Shown piece by piece: positions 8,549 through 18,453 of a stretch of DNA of 29,228 nucleotides. Both the position numbers and the translations under genes were made by a program. Within the stretch, counting starts at the first letter, position 1. Every line of letters starts with the position of its first letter. The notes below the pieces were generated by a model. That model made no database searches. It had not been told where the DNA came from and saw nothing but the letters and a program-made list of their open reading frames with translations. This stretch comes from a virus. The stretch lies in IMG/VR virus record IMGVR_UViG_3300010338_000991; one strand, written 5' to 3'.

Positions 8549-8881
8549 TTATTTAGTTAATATTTGTTTTACCATTTGAACCATGTCTATCGGCGTAGAA
8601 AGCGCATCCTTCACGCGATCTACCATCTCATCATATGCGGCGGCTCTTGCGGCGCACTCAGGGCAAAGATCGTCTTCGTCAAGTTCGCCTTCAACAAACT
8701 CTTTCTCGCAATCATCGCAGAAATACGCCTCATAAACATCAGCCGATCCGCATACTGGGCATATGTTTATGTATTCATCTTTCTCCCAGTTTTCCGAGCC
8801 ATTGCCGATGCGTCCAGCACGATACAACACTGTATCCGGATCGTAAAACTGTGATTCGCAGTCACTGCATTTCCATGTCAT
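8549..8881 (-). CDS. Cys-rich zinc-ribbon protein (110 aa)
   Basis: CSDC..CPVC and CDDC..CPEC pairs; GGAGG upstream of the ATG. Confidence 0.45.
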   Translation of the reverse strand: MTWKCSDCESQFYDPDTVLYRAGRIGNGSENWEKDEYINICPVCGSADVYEAYFCDDCEKEFVEGELDEDDLCPECAARAAAYDEMVDRVKDALSTPIDMVQMVKQILTK

Positions 8882-9663
8882 CTTTTCCTCCCTGTTCTGG
8901 CTTTAATGTGGTATGCAATATCGAATTCATTGCAGAAACCAATAACTGTCTCAACTGCGTTATTATAGAAGCTCTGATAATCAGGATAGGTGGATACCAA
9001 CTTGTTATAATGCAACCTGCCAAAGATAATCCTATCAGTGAAGGAAACTTTATCAAGTAATGACACCAAGTCTTGCTTTACTATATTGGGCGTTGGATAT
9101 GGTTCTATACTCACCCACGTTCTACAACCCAGATCATGCAAATTCTTTATGCTTGCCAGGCGGGTAGGGTAATCTGCGGAAAATGGTTCATATTGCTTTC
9201 TGAAGCCTTCATCGAAAGATACCAGTGAAATGCCCCATTCATGCTTTCTATCAAACCTCGATAGTTCCGAAGGCAGTAATCCTTTGGTTAGCGCTGTGCA
9301 CTTGATGCCATAATGATCCAGTAGCTTGATGATCTCGAGGCTCATTTTCGTTACTTCAGGGTATCCACTCATGAATGGGTCTGTGGTAAAGCAAAGATGC
9401 ACGGACTTAATGCTTTTCTGCTTCCTTGGGATTTCTTTCTTCAGCAGATCAAGAGCGTTTTCAACCAGCCTTGGTTTCAGCCAATCGTCGTAGTCTTTTA
9501 TCCTGCCAAATCTGCGAGCCATCATGAAGGCGTAACAGGGATAAGTGCAACCATGAGAACAACCTAACACATGGTTTATTGTGAAGTCTCCGTATTCTAC
9601 ACCTGTTTTATAGAGAAGCTGTTTTCTTAAATTAGTCTTGCTGGTTGTTTCCTTGTCGCTCAT
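8878..9663 (-). CDS. Hypothetical protein with N-terminal Cys cluster (GCSHGCTYPCYA), possibly DUF5131 (phage Gp37/Gp68)-like
   Basis: N-terminus EYGDFTINHVLGCSHGCTYPCYA resembles, from memory, the conserved start of DUF5131 proteins; not a canonical radical-SAM CxxxCxxC. Confidence 0.4.
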   Translation of the reverse strand: MSDKETTSKTNLRKQLLYKTGVEYGDFTINHVLGCSHGCTYPCYAFMMARRFGRIKDYDDWLKPRLVENALDLLKKEIPRKQKSIKSVHLCFTTDPFMSGYPEVTKMSLEIIKLLDHYGIKCTALTKGLLPSELSRFDRKHEWGISLVSFDEGFRKQYEPFSADYPTRLASIKNLHDLGCRTWVSIEPYPTPNIVKQDLVSLLDKVSFTDRIIFGRLHYNKLVSTYPDYQSFYNNAVETVIGFCNEFDIAYHIKARTGRKR

Positions 9664-10005: not shown

Positions 10006-10878
10006 TTACGCAGCATCATATAGTTGGGCAGGTATCTGGTAGTTAATGCCGGCATGCAGGCGACAGTGATTGTAATCGTGGATGGACAATTTGATCAACT
10101 CCCTGGCCAGGCGTTTGCTCTTCAGGACCTTATGGATCAGGTATTCATGCTTCAGGGTATTGAAGAAGCGCTCTATTTTGGCATTGTCATAGCAGTGGTT
10201 TTTCCCCGTGAAGCTTATAGTCAGGCCATGGGACTGGAGTTTTTTCAGATATCGATAGGAACAATACTAGCAGCCATGGTCTGAATGGTGGATGGCTCCT
10301 TTCAGTTCCGGCGTGCTTTTCAAAGCCTTATTAAGGCAATCCAGAGCCCCGTCAGTGCGCAGATTGTTGCTGATGTTGAAGCTGAGTATCTTACGGGAAT
10401 ACATGTCCATCAGAACCGACAGGTAGAGAATGCCTTCGGTGGTGTGGATATAGGTGATGTCGGCGCAGATCGCCTGGTTGGGACGGGTTATAGGTAGTCC
10501 CTTGATCAGGTTTTCAAAGCTGGAGTCATAAATACCGGGGATAGACGTGCGAACCTTCCTGTAACGCCGGGACAGGACCAAGCCGCGATCGCGCAGGATC
10601 CTGTGGAGTTTGTCACGGCCGATCCCAATCCCCAGGTTGGACAACTCATGCCACAGCTTGCGGATGCCGTAAGCAGGATGCGCCGCCCTGATCTTAAGTA
10701 CCTCGTCCACAATCATCTGCTCGTATTCCGCAACCTTCTGGGAGGATGCCAGGGTCTCATAATACCAGGACTTGCTCTTGTTGAGATTCTTGCAGATGGC
10801 GCTCATGGACGCTTTGACAGAAGCCGCTCCAGCGTTCTTCTTTGCTCGGGGGACAGCCTGGAAAGTGAAGTTTTTTTT
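10006..10878 (-). pseudogene. IS3 transposase OrfB (DDE catalytic domain) interrupted by one in-frame TAG at 10267-10269
   Basis: Translation reads ...AIHHSDHGC, then TAG, then a further 86 in-frame codons (YCSYRYLKK...GKNHCYDNAKIERFFNTLK...) up to TAA at 10006. Confidence 0.7.
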
Positions 10879-11218
10879 CAGCCTCGCTGATGTTCTCGTT
10901 GACCACCTCCACATAGCTCTGAAGGCAAATATTGTGCAGGGTGACAGAGGCCAGGGCGGACTCCAACTCCTTGATCCGGTCTTTTTGCTCTTGCAGTATC
11001 GATTTCTCGTCTTTCATCTCAATCCTCACGTATCTTCTTATTACTTGATCCTTTCCGTATTTGCGGAGCCACTTGTAGATCGTGGTTCTGCCATTGATTT
11101 CATAAAGACGGGTTGCCTCTGCTATTGTCAACCTTCCTTTATCAATCTCCTGAACAACTTTCAACTTGAACGCCTCACTGTAGCGAAGCGTTACCTGGGC
11201 GATGGACTGTTTGGCCAT
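10757..11218 (-). CDS. IS3 transposase OrfA (HTH and leucine-zipper part)
   Basis: AAGGAG upstream of ATG 11218; N-terminal HTH-like LTIAEATRLYEINGRTTIYKWLRKY; coiled-coil segment; overlaps OrfB in the -1 frame. Confidence 0.8.
   Translation of the reverse strand: MAKQSIAQVTLRYSEAFKLKVVQEIDKGRLTIAEATRLYEINGRTTIYKWLRKYGKDQVIRRYVRIEMKDEKSILQEQKDRIKELESALASVTLHNICLQSYVEVVNENISEAEKKLHFPGCPPSKEERWSGFCQSVHERHLQESQQEQVLVL
10871..10877 (-). other. Programmed -1 ribosomal frameshift site A_AAA_AAA for OrfAB fusion transposase
   Basis: Minus-strand codons GAA AAA AAA in the OrfA frame; OrfB frame is open in -1 from this point. Confidence 0.5.
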
Positions 11219-14306: not shown

Positions 14307-14352
14307 GAAAAAGACGAGCGCAAACACAATGTGTCTCGCATGGAGGCGATGA

Positions 14353-14820
14353 GTGAAGACAAATAAGCTTAAATTCAATCCCAATAATCCTCGCAAATGT
14401 AGTAAAGACAAGCTTGAAAAACTTATGCGCTCAATCGAATCATTCCCTGAAATGATGAAGTTGCGCCCAATGGTTTACGATCCCGAAACCATGTATGTTT
14501 TAGGCGGGAATCAGCGCCTCGCAGCTATTAGAAAGCTCGGCATGAAAGACATCCCGGATGAGTGGACGATCGCCGCCACAGATCTCACCCCAGAACAGCA
14601 AAAGGAATTTGTTCTGCGAGATAATGTGCAGTTCGGCGATTGGGACTTTGAGATGCTGTCTGCTGAGTTTGGCGAATTTGATCTTGAAGAAATGGGCATG
14701 GATATGCCAGAGATAGAGGCAGAAGAGCCATATGTCCCAAGTGAAACTAAAGAAATTGACACAGATATAGCATTTGATCACAAGTGCCCAAAATGTGGAT
14801 TTGAGTTTAATGAATCTTAG
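14353..14820 (+). CDS. ParB-like nuclease (ParB/Srx) domain protein with C-terminal zinc ribbon
   Basis: GGAGG 5 nt upstream of a GTG start; N-terminal KLKFNPNNPRK...MYVLGGNQRLAAIRKLG resembles the ParBc domain; C-terminal CPKCG. Confidence 0.6.
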   Translation: MKTNKLKFNPNNPRKCSKDKLEKLMRSIESFPEMMKLRPMVYDPETMYVLGGNQRLAAIRKLGMKDIPDEWTIAATDLTPEQQKEFVLRDNVQFGDWDFEMLSAEFGEFDLEEMGMDMPEIEAEEPYVPSETKEIDTDIAFDHKCPKCGFEFNES

Positions 14821-15829
14821 ATATAACATTAAAGACATTGCAGATATAGAAAAGACGCATAAAGCATTTTCTACTTTTGCGTGTGGTGGGGGATCGTCAA
14901 TAGGCTACAAACTGGCAGGGATTGAAGTTATTGGAGCAAATGATATTGATCCTGAAATGAAGTGGCACTATACAAAAAACCTTAACCCATCGCTATATTA
15001 TTTATGCCCAATATCTGACATGATATCAATGGAATTGCCAAACGAGCTTTTTGCCCTTGACATATTAGATGGATCACCTCCATGCTCAACTTTTAGCACA
15101 TCTGGGAACAGAGAAAAGGATTGGGGCAAAAACAAATACTTTAGGGAAGGTCAAGCAAAGCAAGTTCTTTCTGACTTGTTTTTTGACTACATAGACCTTG
15201 TCAAAAGGCTACAGCCAAAAGTATCTATATCAGAAAATGTAACTGGAATTATCAAAGGAAATGCTAAATATTACGCCAAAACAATAGTGCAAAAACTTGA
15301 TGAAGCAGGATATGTTACTCAAGTTTTTCAGATAAACGCAGCAAATTGCGGTGTCCCTCAAATGAGAGAACGCGTGTTTTTTATAAGTAGGCGCAAAGAT
15401 ATAGACAAAAAACCACTTGTATTATCACCAAAAGAAAAAATACTTACTGTATGGGATGCTATACACGACATACAGGATTTGACAGATGATGAGATTAGGG
15501 ACACAGCCCCAAATAACACTGACTTGAAATATTGGAACAAAACCAAGCCAGGATGCAGCTATTCAAGCGTTCACGAAAAAGGCAGCTTTTTTTCTTATTA
15601 TAGGCTAAACAAAGACAAACCAAGCAACACTATCCAAGCAAACCATCAATGTTATACTCACCCATCAGAATGCAGAAACCTAACTTTTAGAGAAGTCAAA
15701 AGACTGTCGTCATTTCCAGATGATTACGAAGCAAAAACAGATAACATCGGGAAGTATATGTGCGGAATGAGTGTGCCTCCATTTATGATGTATCAAGTAG
15801 CAAAAGCAGTAAAAGAGCAGTGGCTATAA
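14810..15829 (+). CDS. DNA (cytosine-5)-methyltransferase (ORF track starts at a TTG at 14774)
   Basis: Motif I FACGGGSSIGYKLAG, catalytic PC motif GSPPCSTFS, ENV motif ISENVTG, QxRxR motif VPQMRERVFF. Confidence 0.85.
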   Translation: MNLRYNIKDIADIEKTHKAFSTFACGGGSSIGYKLAGIEVIGANDIDPEMKWHYTKNLNPSLYYLCPISDMISMELPNELFALDILDGSPPCSTFSTSGNREKDWGKNKYFREGQAKQVLSDLFFDYIDLVKRLQPKVSISENVTGIIKGNAKYYAKTIVQKLDEAGYVTQVFQINAANCGVPQMRERVFFISRRKDIDKKPLVLSPKEKILTVWDAIHDIQDLTDDEIRDTAPNNTDLKYWNKTKPGCSYSSVHEKGSFFSYYRLNKDKPSNTIQANHQCYTHPSECRNLTFREVKRLSSFPDDYEAKTDNIGKYMCGMSVPPFMMYQVAKAVKEQWL

Positions 15830-15865
15830 TGTGTGATGAGACAATATCCGGACAAGGAGTATCGA

Positions 15866-16813
15866 ATGATTAGAACCGCTGAATGTGTAACGCCGAAGCA
15901 TCCAGACAAGCTGTGCGACCGCATAGCTGATGCCATATTGACGGAGGCAATAAAGCAAGATCCAAACGCCAGAACGGCAATAGAAGTTTGTGCCGGTCAT
16001 GGCATTGTGACCGTTCTGGGCGAAATGACAACCACAGCCTTTGTTGATGTTGCTGACATAGCCCGCAGGATTACAGATGGTGAGTGCGGCGTGCAAGTCA
16101 ATATTGTGCGACAGTCACCCGACATAGCGATGGGAGTTGATGCCGGAGGCGCCGGAGATCAAGGCATTATGATCGGATATGCCTGCAACGAAAATGATAA
16201 TTTTATTCCTACGGAATTAAACCTCGCCAGAGATTTGTGCCAATTCATTTATATGCGACACGAAGTTGACGGCAAAACTCAAATCACAATGGACGGCAAT
16301 AAAATATCAACTATTGTCGCAAGCTTTCACAACACAAAGAGCGGAGATCTGAGATCCCTTGTGCACCAGTGGCTTGATGGCAGAAAATGCGAATCGATAA
16401 TGTGTAATCCTGCCGGCGATTGGAAAACCGGCGGGCTTAACGCTGATTCTGGCGTAACGGGAAGGAAACTTGCCATAGACAACTACGGAACCAGAACACC
16501 CATTGGCGGCGGCGCATTTAGCGGAAAAGACCCCACCAAAGTGGATCGCTCTGCCGCGTATATGGCAAGAAAAATTGCTGTCGATATCTTGCGCCAGAAA
16601 AATGCAAAAGAAGTTATCGTTTCGCTTGCTTATGCAATCGGCGTTCCTGATCCGGTAATGACGGAGTGTATTGCCGATGGAAATCATGTTGACATTTCAC
16701 ACTACAGCTTGACACCAAAAGCAATTATCGATGCGCTTGGGCTTCGTGATATTGATTATGAAAAAACAGCAGCGTGGGGGCACTTCGGCATCGGCATGCC
16801 GTGGGACAAATAA
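15866..16813 (+). CDS. metK: S-adenosylmethionine synthetase (MetK), compact form of about 315 aa
   Basis: AAGGAG 6 nt upstream of ATG 15866; motifs KHPDKLCDRIADAILTEA, GAGDQGIMIGYA, DGKTQIT, GGGAFSGKDPTKVDRSAAYMARKIA and C-terminal TAAWGHFG, aligning with bacterial MetK. Confidence 0.85.
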   Translation: MIRTAECVTPKHPDKLCDRIADAILTEAIKQDPNARTAIEVCAGHGIVTVLGEMTTTAFVDVADIARRITDGECGVQVNIVRQSPDIAMGVDAGGAGDQGIMIGYACNENDNFIPTELNLARDLCQFIYMRHEVDGKTQITMDGNKISTIVASFHNTKSGDLRSLVHQWLDGRKCESIMCNPAGDWKTGGLNADSGVTGRKLAIDNYGTRTPIGGGAFSGKDPTKVDRSAAYMARKIAVDILRQKNAKEVIVSLAYAIGVPDPVMTECIADGNHVDISHYSLTPKAIIDALGLRDIDYEKTAAWGHFGIGMPWDK

Positions 16814-16814
16814 A

Positions 16815-17213
16815 ATGGCAACGACCAAAAAAGCTTCCAATAAAGCGACTCCAGACTTCACACTTAAAAAAAGCCAAATGCTGGAGGCGCTTGAAAAGTC
16901 TCTTGGCGTGGTGACCACCGCCGCTCAGAAGGTAGGCATCAGCAGGCGGCAACATTACAACTGGCTCAAATCCGATCCTGCCTATTGCGAGGCCGTTGCC
17001 GAGATTAATAACATATCGCTTGACCTTGCTGAGTCCAAGCTATTCACGGCTGTTAATAATGGTGAGTTATCTGCTATCATTTTCTTTCTGAAATGCAAAG
17101 GCAAGAAGCGCGGATATATCGAGAGGCCGGCAGACGAGCCGGCGCCGCAAGACCACAACAAACCCGAAATATGCATGCGCCCAGCGCGGCTAGCGGAATC
17201 CGATGAAGATTAA
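16815..17213 (+). CDS. terS: Terminase small subunit candidate (132 aa)
   Basis: HTH-like segment LGVVTTAAQKVGISRRQHYNWL; directly upstream of and overlapping the large terminase. Confidence 0.5.
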   Translation: MATTKKASNKATPDFTLKKSQMLEALEKSLGVVTTAAQKVGISRRQHYNWLKSDPAYCEAVAEINNISLDLAESKLFTAVNNGELSAIIFFLKCKGKKRGYIERPADEPAPQDHNKPEICMRPARLAESDED

Positions 17214-18453
17214 CTTTTGTGAAGATCATTATTTGCCGCATCAATGGCAATTCCTTAATGATTGGAGCAGAACGCTTGGATTGATCGGCGGGCTCGGCTC
17301 CGGCAAAACTGCGGCGTTTCTTGCTAAGACATTCATCTGCCACATCAGCCGACCGGGCGCAACCGGAAAGAGCAATGTCGGCATTGGCTACCCGTCGTAT
17401 GGCGATGCGAAGGAATTGTTCTTCTACCCGTATTGCGATATGTTAGAGATGGCTGGAATCAAATACGTAGAAAACAAATCAGAGCTTACGATTAAAACTG
17501 AGCAGGGTCAAGTCAAGATCGTGTCTGCGTTCCATCCGGAGCGGATCAAGGGTTTTTCGTTCACCGATTTCGGTTTTGACGAGATCGACACGCTTGATTT
17601 GGCGAAAGGCAAAACCGCTATCCGCCGGGCAAGAGAACGCTTGCGTGGACGCAGAGACGCTCAATTGTTTCTGGTCTCGTCACCGGAAGGTTTTTCCACC
17701 TGTTACGAGGTGCTGAAGAAGAATCCGAATCCGGGCACATCCGTCATTCATGCCGATACGCGATCGAACACATATCTTCCCACCGAATACATTAATGATT
17801 TGCTCAATACTTATGATGAACAGATGGCTATGGCATATATTAGTGGTCAATTTGTTAACCTGAACAATATGCAAGCGCACTATGCCTTCCGCCGGGATGT
17901 TCACGTGCATAGCATTCCGATGCCTGAGCCGCACGATGTGATACTGGTGGGGATAGATTTTAATGTTAATCCAATGACGGCGGCTTTGTGCTATTCGCGC
18001 GAAATTGACGGGCGCACACATTACTTTTTCTTTGCAGAATACTATCTTTTGAACGCAAACACATATCTGTTGTCAGACTTGTTAGCGGAAGACTACCCGA
18101 ATCGCGTATTGCGCTGCTATCCTGATCCGACTGGAATTGCGCGCAAGACATCATCTGATGCAAGCGATATAGAAATACTGAAGCGCAAGGGCTTCGATGT
18201 CCGGTATCGACACGGTATAACGCAACGCAGATCGCTCAATATCGCCAATGGCGCATTTGCGCATAATGCTATCCACATCGATCCTTGTTGTGAAAACTTG
18301 ATTAACGATCTTGAGCAGGTGGTCACCGATGCGGCCGGCGCTATAATGAAACCAAACAACACAATGCTGACACATATTTCTGACGCAATGCGCAATATAA
18401 TCGTTGTTGACGCATTGGTAAAGCAAGAACAAACACCGTGGGATGTAGCATGA
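17203..18453 (+). CDS. terL: Terminase large subunit
   Basis: Walker A GGLGSGKT, Walker B-like FGFDEID, C-terminal nuclease-like region (VGIDFNVNP); 416 aa. Confidence 0.8.
   Translation: MKINFCEDHYLPHQWQFLNDWSRTLGLIGGLGSGKTAAFLAKTFICHISRPGATGKSNVGIGYPSYGDAKELFFYPYCDMLEMAGIKYVENKSELTIKTEQGQVKIVSAFHPERIKGFSFTDFGFDEIDTLDLAKGKTAIRRARERLRGRRDAQLFLVSSPEGFSTCYEVLKKNPNPGTSVIHADTRSNTYLPTEYINDLLNTYDEQMAMAYISGQFVNLNNMQAHYAFRRDVHVHSIPMPEPHDVILVGIDFNVNPMTAALCYSREIDGRTHYFFFAEYYLLNANTYLLSDLLAEDYPNRVLRCYPDPTGIARKTSSDASDIEILKRKGFDVRYRHGITQRRSLNIANGAFAHNAIHIDPCCENLINDLEQVVTDAAGAIMKPNNTMLTHISDAMRNIIVVDALVKQEQTPWDVA

Follow-up and report, generated by a model that had tools for sequence, protein, structure and literature searches.

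The window (the whole stretch of viral DNA analysed here, 29,228 nt, IMG/VR record IMGVR_UViG_3300010338_000991) carries phage genes for RecT-like, RusA, DnaC/IstB-like and replication initiator proteins, and then a plus-strand block in which a ParB_N gene is succeeded by those for a Dcm-type methyltransferase, MetK (methionine adenosyltransferase, MAT), a small-terminase-like protein, TerL, portal, MuF and the major capsid protein (Table 1). With replication genes on one side of it and packaging and head genes on the other, MetK lies within the phage genome. Spacing in the block, of which ParB_N is the first gene, is tight: the Dcm stop is 36 nt ahead of the MetK start, and the ATG of the small-terminase-like gene is 1 nt past the MetK stop. 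An IS3 element separates the replication genes from a radical-SAM gene.

Table 1. Features of the window that bear on the phage MetK gene, with the evidence for each (residue numbers are those of the encoded protein unless E. coli is named)
Feature	Coordinates	Strand	Evidence and remarks
Radical-SAM protein	8878..9663	-	PF04055 E 2.6e-7, PHROG 13321, weak DUF5131; second SAM consumer
IS3 element	10267-11218	-	OrfA with HTH domains, OrfB with rve integrase core
ParB-N-domain protein	14353..14820	+	PHROG 620 E 5e-25, PHROG 498 (ParB-MTase) E 6e-24, weak Pfam ParB_N
C5-cytosine DNA methyltransferase (Dcm type)	14774..15829	+	PF00145 E 3.1e-47, TIGR00675 above cut-off, PHROG 116
Shine-Dalgarno AAGGAG	15853..15858	+	7 nt 5' of MetK ATG, read from the sequence
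Short-form MetK CDS	15866..16813	+	315 aa and TAA stop; Pfam, PHROG 1569, PDB, AF2
HPDK motif	15899..15910	+	residues 12-15; H12, D14, K15 = E. coli H15, D17, K18; triphosphate/Mg binding
Gating-loop region QSPDIAMGVDAG	16112..16147	+	residues 83-94, from E. coli alignment
GAGDQG signature	16148..16165	+	D98 = E. coli D119, methionine binding
GGGAFSGKD signature	16505..16531	+	residues 214-222; K221 = E. coli K266
Small-terminase-like gene	16815..17213	+	PHROG 4044/309 terminase small subunit
TerL	17203-18453	+	PF03237, PHROG 2

The open reading frame that contains MetK runs on the plus strand from a GTG at 15833 to the TAA at 16811-16813. ATG 15866 is taken as the correct start because of the spacing of the AAGGAG, the alignment of homologue N-termini with the residue it encodes (MIRTAEC / MYKTAEC) and the onset of the nucleotide conservation shared with sister phages, which begins at 15812-15828. 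Two other candidate starts, GTG 15833 and ATG 15836, were rejected in view of the Shine-Dalgarno site and of where homologues begin.

That the product belongs with the MetK proteins is evident from several directions. The initial annotation had seen the three MetK domain signatures in order, and so they are: the N-terminal (PF00438, residues 2-69, E 2e-20, 73.6 bits against a cut-off of 33.1), central (PF02772, residues 95-159, E 4.6e-12, 46.6 bits against 29) and C-terminal (PF02773, residues 189-315, E 6.7e-37, 126.9 bits against 25) Pfam domains follow one another canonically, each above its curated gathering score. A PDB sequence search yielded 45 matches to solved MATs (best E 3.4e-53), and the profile of PHROG 1569, the phage MetK family, which is annotated there as of unknown function, is matched end to end (positions 1-345 of 346, E 1.1e-92). 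With TIGR01034, the NCBIfam metK equivalog, the score is 246.3 bits and so under the 309.4-bit cut-off, which explains the cautious name ‘methionine adenosyltransferase domain-containing protein’ that NCBI gives to relatives. By fold and motifs the protein is a MetK; it fails only that strict equivalog score. The GAGDQGxxxGY signature is present as GAGDQGIMIGY at residues 95-105, K225 and D227 stand just downstream of GGGAFSGKD, and the HPDK motif, invariant among 84 family members, is at residues 12-15 versus 15-18 in E. coli, only 3 residues closer to the N-terminus.

The compactness to which attention had been drawn (about 315 versus about 385 aa) is real. At 315 aa the protein has 69 residues fewer than E. 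coli MetK (384 aa), with 41% of the 315 aligned positions identical; the E. coli sequence used as reference is consistent with the alignment to 1FUG in the PDB search. The pairwise alignment to E. coli MetK that had been proposed as a check allows the deleted segments to be mapped, and they are spread over 12 small gaps, given here in E. coli numbering counting Met1. They comprise 3 residues at the N-terminus (1-3); 13 at the end of helix 2 and in the loop after it (74-86); 5 (DPLEQ, 111-115) in the hinge that joins the gating loop to GAGDQG; 8 at the end of helix 3 and in its loop (152-156 and 161-163); 5 at the tip of the beta-6/beta-7 hairpin (173-174 and 178-180); 8 amounting to two turns of helix 4 (196-203); 3 in a loop (218-220); 9 in a helix of the C-terminal domain (326-334); a single one in a loop (363); and 14 in the C-terminal tail (371-384). 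The secondary-structure elements named are those of the E. coli structure, and the placement of the gaps on them was checked against the DSSP string of the model described next.

A confident AlphaFold2 model of the single chain, made from an input alignment of 84 sequences, has a pLDDT of 89.6 and a pTM of 0.89. In it the beta-alpha-beta-beta-alpha-beta repeat occurs three times, each time with a short second helix, and Foldseek superimposes the model on more than 40 solved MAT chains with TMq of 0.88-0.92 and E of about 5e-35. It is these repeats, together with the overlay on solved MATs, that identify the outer helical layer and the loops as what has been trimmed. The earlier suggestion that surface or loop segments were shortened is thereby borne out and can be made specific: in the model the beta-sheet face that bears the active site is untouched, the trimming having fallen on the ends of the outer (second) helices, connecting loops, one beta-hairpin, the gating hinge and the C-tail. 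At the gating loop pLDDT drops to 62-71, as expected for a mobile loop. The core of that loop, QSPDIxxGVD, is present, and the hinge leading from it to GAGDQG has 5 residues fewer than that of E. coli.

Does so trimmed a protein still work as an enzyme? The residues aligned with E. coli H15, D17, K18, E43, E56, Q99, D119, D164 and K166 are identical to them, as are those aligned with D239, R245, K246, K266, K270 and D272. The adenine-stacking F231 of E. coli is replaced by W, and all the ligand and catalytic positions checked, this W included, are invariant in 84 family members. The one change close to the active site is the shortening of the gating-loop hinge, which is family-wide and could alter kinetics; apart from it, the loss of active-site or gating-loop residues that would have pointed to a pseudo-enzyme is not seen. 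Selection speaks in the same sense: among 11 close phage copies, which differ at about 12-20% of synonymous sites, dN/dS over 54 pairs has a median of 0.074 (about 0.08), and such purifying selection indicates that this MetK copy is neither decaying nor a decoy. It is nonetheless fair to ask whether the protein might be a catalytically dead MetK-like one whose targets would be host MetK or SAM-dependent defence proteins, given the score under the TIGR01034 cut-off, the shortened hinge and the precedent of phage T3, which targets host MetK via another protein (PDB 8bb1; bioRxiv 10.1101/2023.02.27.530186). That possibility is extremely improbable. The identity of catalytic and ligand residues to those of E. 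coli, invariant family-wide, and the dN/dS value are the grounds for rejecting it, and on Patescibacteria contigs the short form sits amid housekeeping genes. Judged by its residues and their conservation, the gene is an intact-looking and apparently active SAM synthetase.

Is the compact design a viral invention? Homologues of the window MetK number at least 8000 in a word-indexed search, and the best 120 of these are each 313-335 aa long, with 57-97% identity. Across 50%-identity cluster representatives, an exhaustive HMMER search finds MetK lengths forming a continuum from about 311 to 400 aa. The short-form clade is very large, with members in cellular genomes. On a 148 kb Patescibacteria MAG contig a 319-aa MetK lies between a peptidase/RuvX/RecO/GroES-EL block and tRNA-guanine transglycosylase (TGT), with ArgRS also among its neighbours, and on a 40-kb metagenome contig a short MetK lies between ClpP/SecDF/FtsA-FtsZ and surface proteins. 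In a species-level genome scan dozens of Saccharibacteria genomes carry the short form (52-58% identity), and two Candidatus Cloacimonadales assemblies of 2.9-3.1 Mb, one of them a complete chromosome, carry it at 61%. Neighbours were annotated at one Cloacimonadales locus (L008), where they are an Mnh antiporter, a TetR regulator and T9SS-sorted proteins, none of them phage-like, and it is from such non-phage neighbours alone that ‘housekeeping’ status in this phylum is judged. Comparison of that locus with the other three (L009-L011) found nothing that matches beyond MetK itself. Across L008-L010 the MetK proteins are 77-91% identical and their 8-kb flanks have no detectable similarity, so that the gene does not keep a fixed chromosomal place in this phylum.

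A short-form MetK is also encoded on more than 100 other viral contigs. On one phage-like contig (L003, 14958-16403), which has a 323-aa short MetK, a DAM-like-phage / GNAT-phage-like fusion and a DpnD-PcfM protein are encoded a few kb downstream. In a six-way alignment the MetKs of the window, Cloacimonadales, Saccharibacteria and unrelated viruses have an identical gap pattern. A neighbour-joining tree, a distance tree rooted on E. coli MetK without support values and so indicative only, puts 161 short forms of 315-350 aa in one clade; within it 48 viral sequences group by themselves, Saccharibacteria form a group, and another group mixes Cloacimonadota, Patescibacteria and viral members. 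The window lineage is a separate deep branch in that tree, together with 13 near-identical viral contigs. Recent capture from a host, with the window MetK nested in Cloacimonadota, was considered and rejected on this deep branch of its own and on the identity of about 61%.

From this distribution the compact form appears to have been inherited and not made by this phage; Patescibacteria and Cloacimonadota also carry it on the chromosome. The initial annotation spoke of a minimised viral SAM synthetase. Compact, intact-looking and virus-encoded it is, but compaction as viral minimisation is not supported, given the finding of the same gaps in Patescibacteria, Saccharibacteria and Cloacimonadales and of 313-335 aa lengths throughout the best 120 matches; since cellular chromosomes share the design and phages commonly carry the short form, a short MetK is ordinary and no virus-specific minimisation.

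A stronger version of the same idea holds that MetK was minimised by or for the virus, the deletions removing the tetramer interface or regulation to leave a deregulated, dimer-only enzyme. MATs are obligate dimers whose active sites lie where the two subunits meet. There are features that might lead one to the viral version. The interdimer interface of E. coli MAT involves salt bridges of K98 with D64 and E67 (PMC9202080); the 74-86 gap directly follows the helix with D64 and E67, the 13 missing residues beginning seven residues past the E67 equivalent, and the gating-loop region, with its hinge 5 residues shorter, carries K98. Further, there is no solved MAT as short as this one. However, the equivalents of D64, E67 and K98 in the window MetK are D61, D64 and R82, with the charges kept, and a dimer-only enzyme would not be special, as several bacterial MATs of full length exist in solution as dimers (PMC9202080). 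An identical architecture on cellular chromosomes, housekeeping contexts included, in any case precludes a viral invention. Altogether minimisation for the virus's sake is unlikely, while a changed quaternary structure of the window MetK, judged from these alignments, is possible.

The phage itself has close relatives in metagenomes. MetK proteins 97-99% identical to that of the window are encoded by 13 IMG/VR contigs and three MAG contigs, and in the longer of these the gene occupies the same place, the packaging and head genes beside it being collinear with those of the window and 91-96% identical in nucleotides. A megablast search of window positions 8000-29228 against GenBank phages gave zero matches, so there is no named relative. 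One of the MAG contigs, L007 (JAVEPM010000154.1), 4.9 kb long and binned as Methanolobus, matches the viral contig L095 in length and in the coordinates of its MetK match; because it aligns to the window just as that viral contig does, its assignment is doubted, and a binning error is probably at issue and not an archaeal MetK.

A pointer to the host comes from the IS3 element. OrfB of this element has 97% identity to a protein cluster, built at 90% identity, in which the named sequences derive from Candidatus Cloacimonadota MAGs, on contigs of up to 2.3 Mb, with one member from a Bacteroidales MAG. The OrfB ORF, 214 aa as listed versus 266 aa in relatives, may be disrupted. On the strength of this one IS element Cloacimonadota is the likely host phylum. 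Two points temper this assignment: the GC content of the window is 46%, versus 32-36% in the four Cloacimonadales loci, and synteny around MetK is lacking among those genomes.

Expression of MetK together with its neighbours is suggested by the layout of the block. No terminator-like site was found on the plus strand from 14353 to 17400, within a promoter and terminator scan whose counts equalled the expectation from shuffled sequence, and this absence together with the Dcm-MetK and MetK-TerS spacing fits a single transcription unit. MetK would then probably be co-transcribed with the C5 DNA methyltransferase gene upstream, and it is likely translationally coupled to the small-terminase-like gene, and so to the terminase genes, downstream.

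What stands directly 5' of MetK in the lineage of the window is always SAM-using: Dcm here, and a radical-SAM gene in sister phages of 92-96% nucleotide identity. In three of the latter (L088, L086 and L090) a gene for a 190-aa protein and one for a 257-aa radical-SAM protein are directly upstream of MetK, and a fusion of ParB_N with an N6/N4 methyltransferase is farther upstream. The radical-SAM protein of the window is 27% identical to the sister-phage one beside MetK; it has weak NCBIfam matches to the Rv2578c, PA0069 and ‘mobile pair’ rSAM families. The segment from ParB_N to MetK is a swappable cassette (14340-15830 in the window, 4270-7971 in L088 and 1057-5180 in L086), and the sister-phage cassette includes a duplicated ParB_N module. 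In the window the ParB_N and Dcm ORFs overlap at 14774-14820 in different frames where relatives have a ParB_N-methyltransferase fusion, and the pair may derive from a ParB-MTase by splitting or recombination.

The short-form methionine adenosyltransferase would catalyse the conversion of ATP and methionine to SAM, PPi and Pi and, as an auxiliary metabolic gene of the phage, would likely keep SAM available to phage consumers during DNA synthesis and packaging. The consumers in question would be DNA methylation, shielding phage DNA from restriction, and the radical-SAM enzyme. Going by gene order, such supply is the most likely role. In anaerobic digesters MetK (K00789) and Dcm (K00558) are among the most abundant phage auxiliary metabolic genes (PMC13644194), and in the Streptococcus prophage Javan29 MetK is followed by three DNA methyltransferase genes. 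The reading in which an active, inherited short-form MetK supplies SAM to the SAM-dependent enzymes of the phage is given a probability of about 0.72.

A broader role can also be envisaged. As a general host-takeover gene MetK would sustain the SAM pool of the cell with no special tie to phage DNA methylation, the SAM being used for polyamines, tRNA and rRNA methylation and nucleotide metabolism during infection. In 64 distant viral loci the immediate neighbours of MetK include thymidylate synthase (20), cytidylyltransferase-like proteins (19) and DNA methyltransferases (11); of the 124 neighbours counted in these loci (L098-L164), Dam-type methyltransferases account for 7 and Hsp20 for 7. Thymidylate synthase and cytidylyltransferase-like genes being commoner than methyltransferases there, the methyltransferase link is lineage-specific and not general. 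With dUTPase and dCTP deaminase also among the commonest, the neighbourhood at these distant loci is one that a host-takeover gene might keep, and deletion of metK in a Streptococcus prophage altered chain length, aggregation and biofilm of the host (PMC8223999). As an observation in itself, these neighbours suggest a recurring nucleotide-metabolism module. However, the constant presence of a SAM-using enzyme directly upstream in the lineage of the window counts against a general role as the explanation here, a role which in any case overlaps with SAM supply more than it excludes it; taken as an alternative, host takeover is distinctly unlikely.

Comparison with better-known systems helps to place the enzyme. 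With E. coli MetK and bacterial MATs (PDB 1FUG, 1P7L, 7LL3) it has in common the three-domain fold (TMq about 0.9), GAGDQG, GGGAFSGKD and all the catalytic, Mg2+/K+ and substrate residues checked; it differs in its 69 fewer residues, the W in place of F231 and a score under the TIGR01034 cut-off. The short form of Patescibacteria (Saccharibacteria, Dojkabacteria) and Cloacimonadota is of the same 315-325 aa class, with the same gaps and 55-63% identity, but these copies are chromosomal, among housekeeping or non-phage genes, whereas that of the window is in a phage. The best structural matches to the model (TMq 0.91-0.92) are to the MAT of Ureaplasma urealyticum (PDB 6RJS/6RK7/6RKC), an organism with a reduced genome whose enzyme has a weak interdimer interface (PMC9202080); that MAT is, however, longer, at 377-382 aa, and 34-35% identical in the structural alignment.

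Phage MetKs as such are already annotated, in 161 GenBank phage records and in PHROG 1569, and genetic work on phage metK has been done in a Streptococcus prophage (PMC8223999). The Streptococcus prophage proteins (Javan phages, 12/111phiA) belong to the same PHROG 1569, are likewise phage-encoded with DNA methyltransferase genes nearby, and lack the same 5 hinge residues, the C-tail and most of residues 74-86. At 345 aa and 42-45% identity to the window MetK they nevertheless retain the hairpin, alpha-4 helix and C-domain helix segments that are absent from it. The SAM lyase (SAMase) of phage T3 likewise manipulates the SAM pool, in a context of restriction-modification and BREX, but to opposite effect: it destroys SAM and inhibits host MetK, and is unrelated to the window MetK in fold and sequence. 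No paper describing a short-form MetK in phages or Patescibacteria was found by a literature search with most subscription journals outside its coverage, and metK goes unmentioned in the Patescibacteria genetics paper. Nor was a solved structure of the short form found, every MAT sequence in the PDB search being at least 377 aa long, and in the BFVD viral structure library viral MetK is represented by a 138-aa fragment and by no full-length model.

Current understanding is not overturned by a short phage MetK. Its position right beside SAM-consuming enzymes in this phage provides a testable reason for its being carried, and a MAT of 315 aa could find use as a compact biocatalyst in making SAM or its analogues. 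With the short form, nature may also offer a way to probe how much a MAT owes to its outer helices, gating hinge and tetramer interface. Rather doubtful is the combined notion that the short clade represents a minimal, dimer-only MAT with weaker product inhibition that has been repeatedly exchanged between streamlined bacteria and phages. Were it true, the trimmed outer helices and shorter gating hinge would remove tetramerisation and weaken product inhibition, and exchange between Patescibacteria or Cloacimonadota and phages would be favoured by a small, self-sufficient (e.g. chaperonin-independent) MetK.
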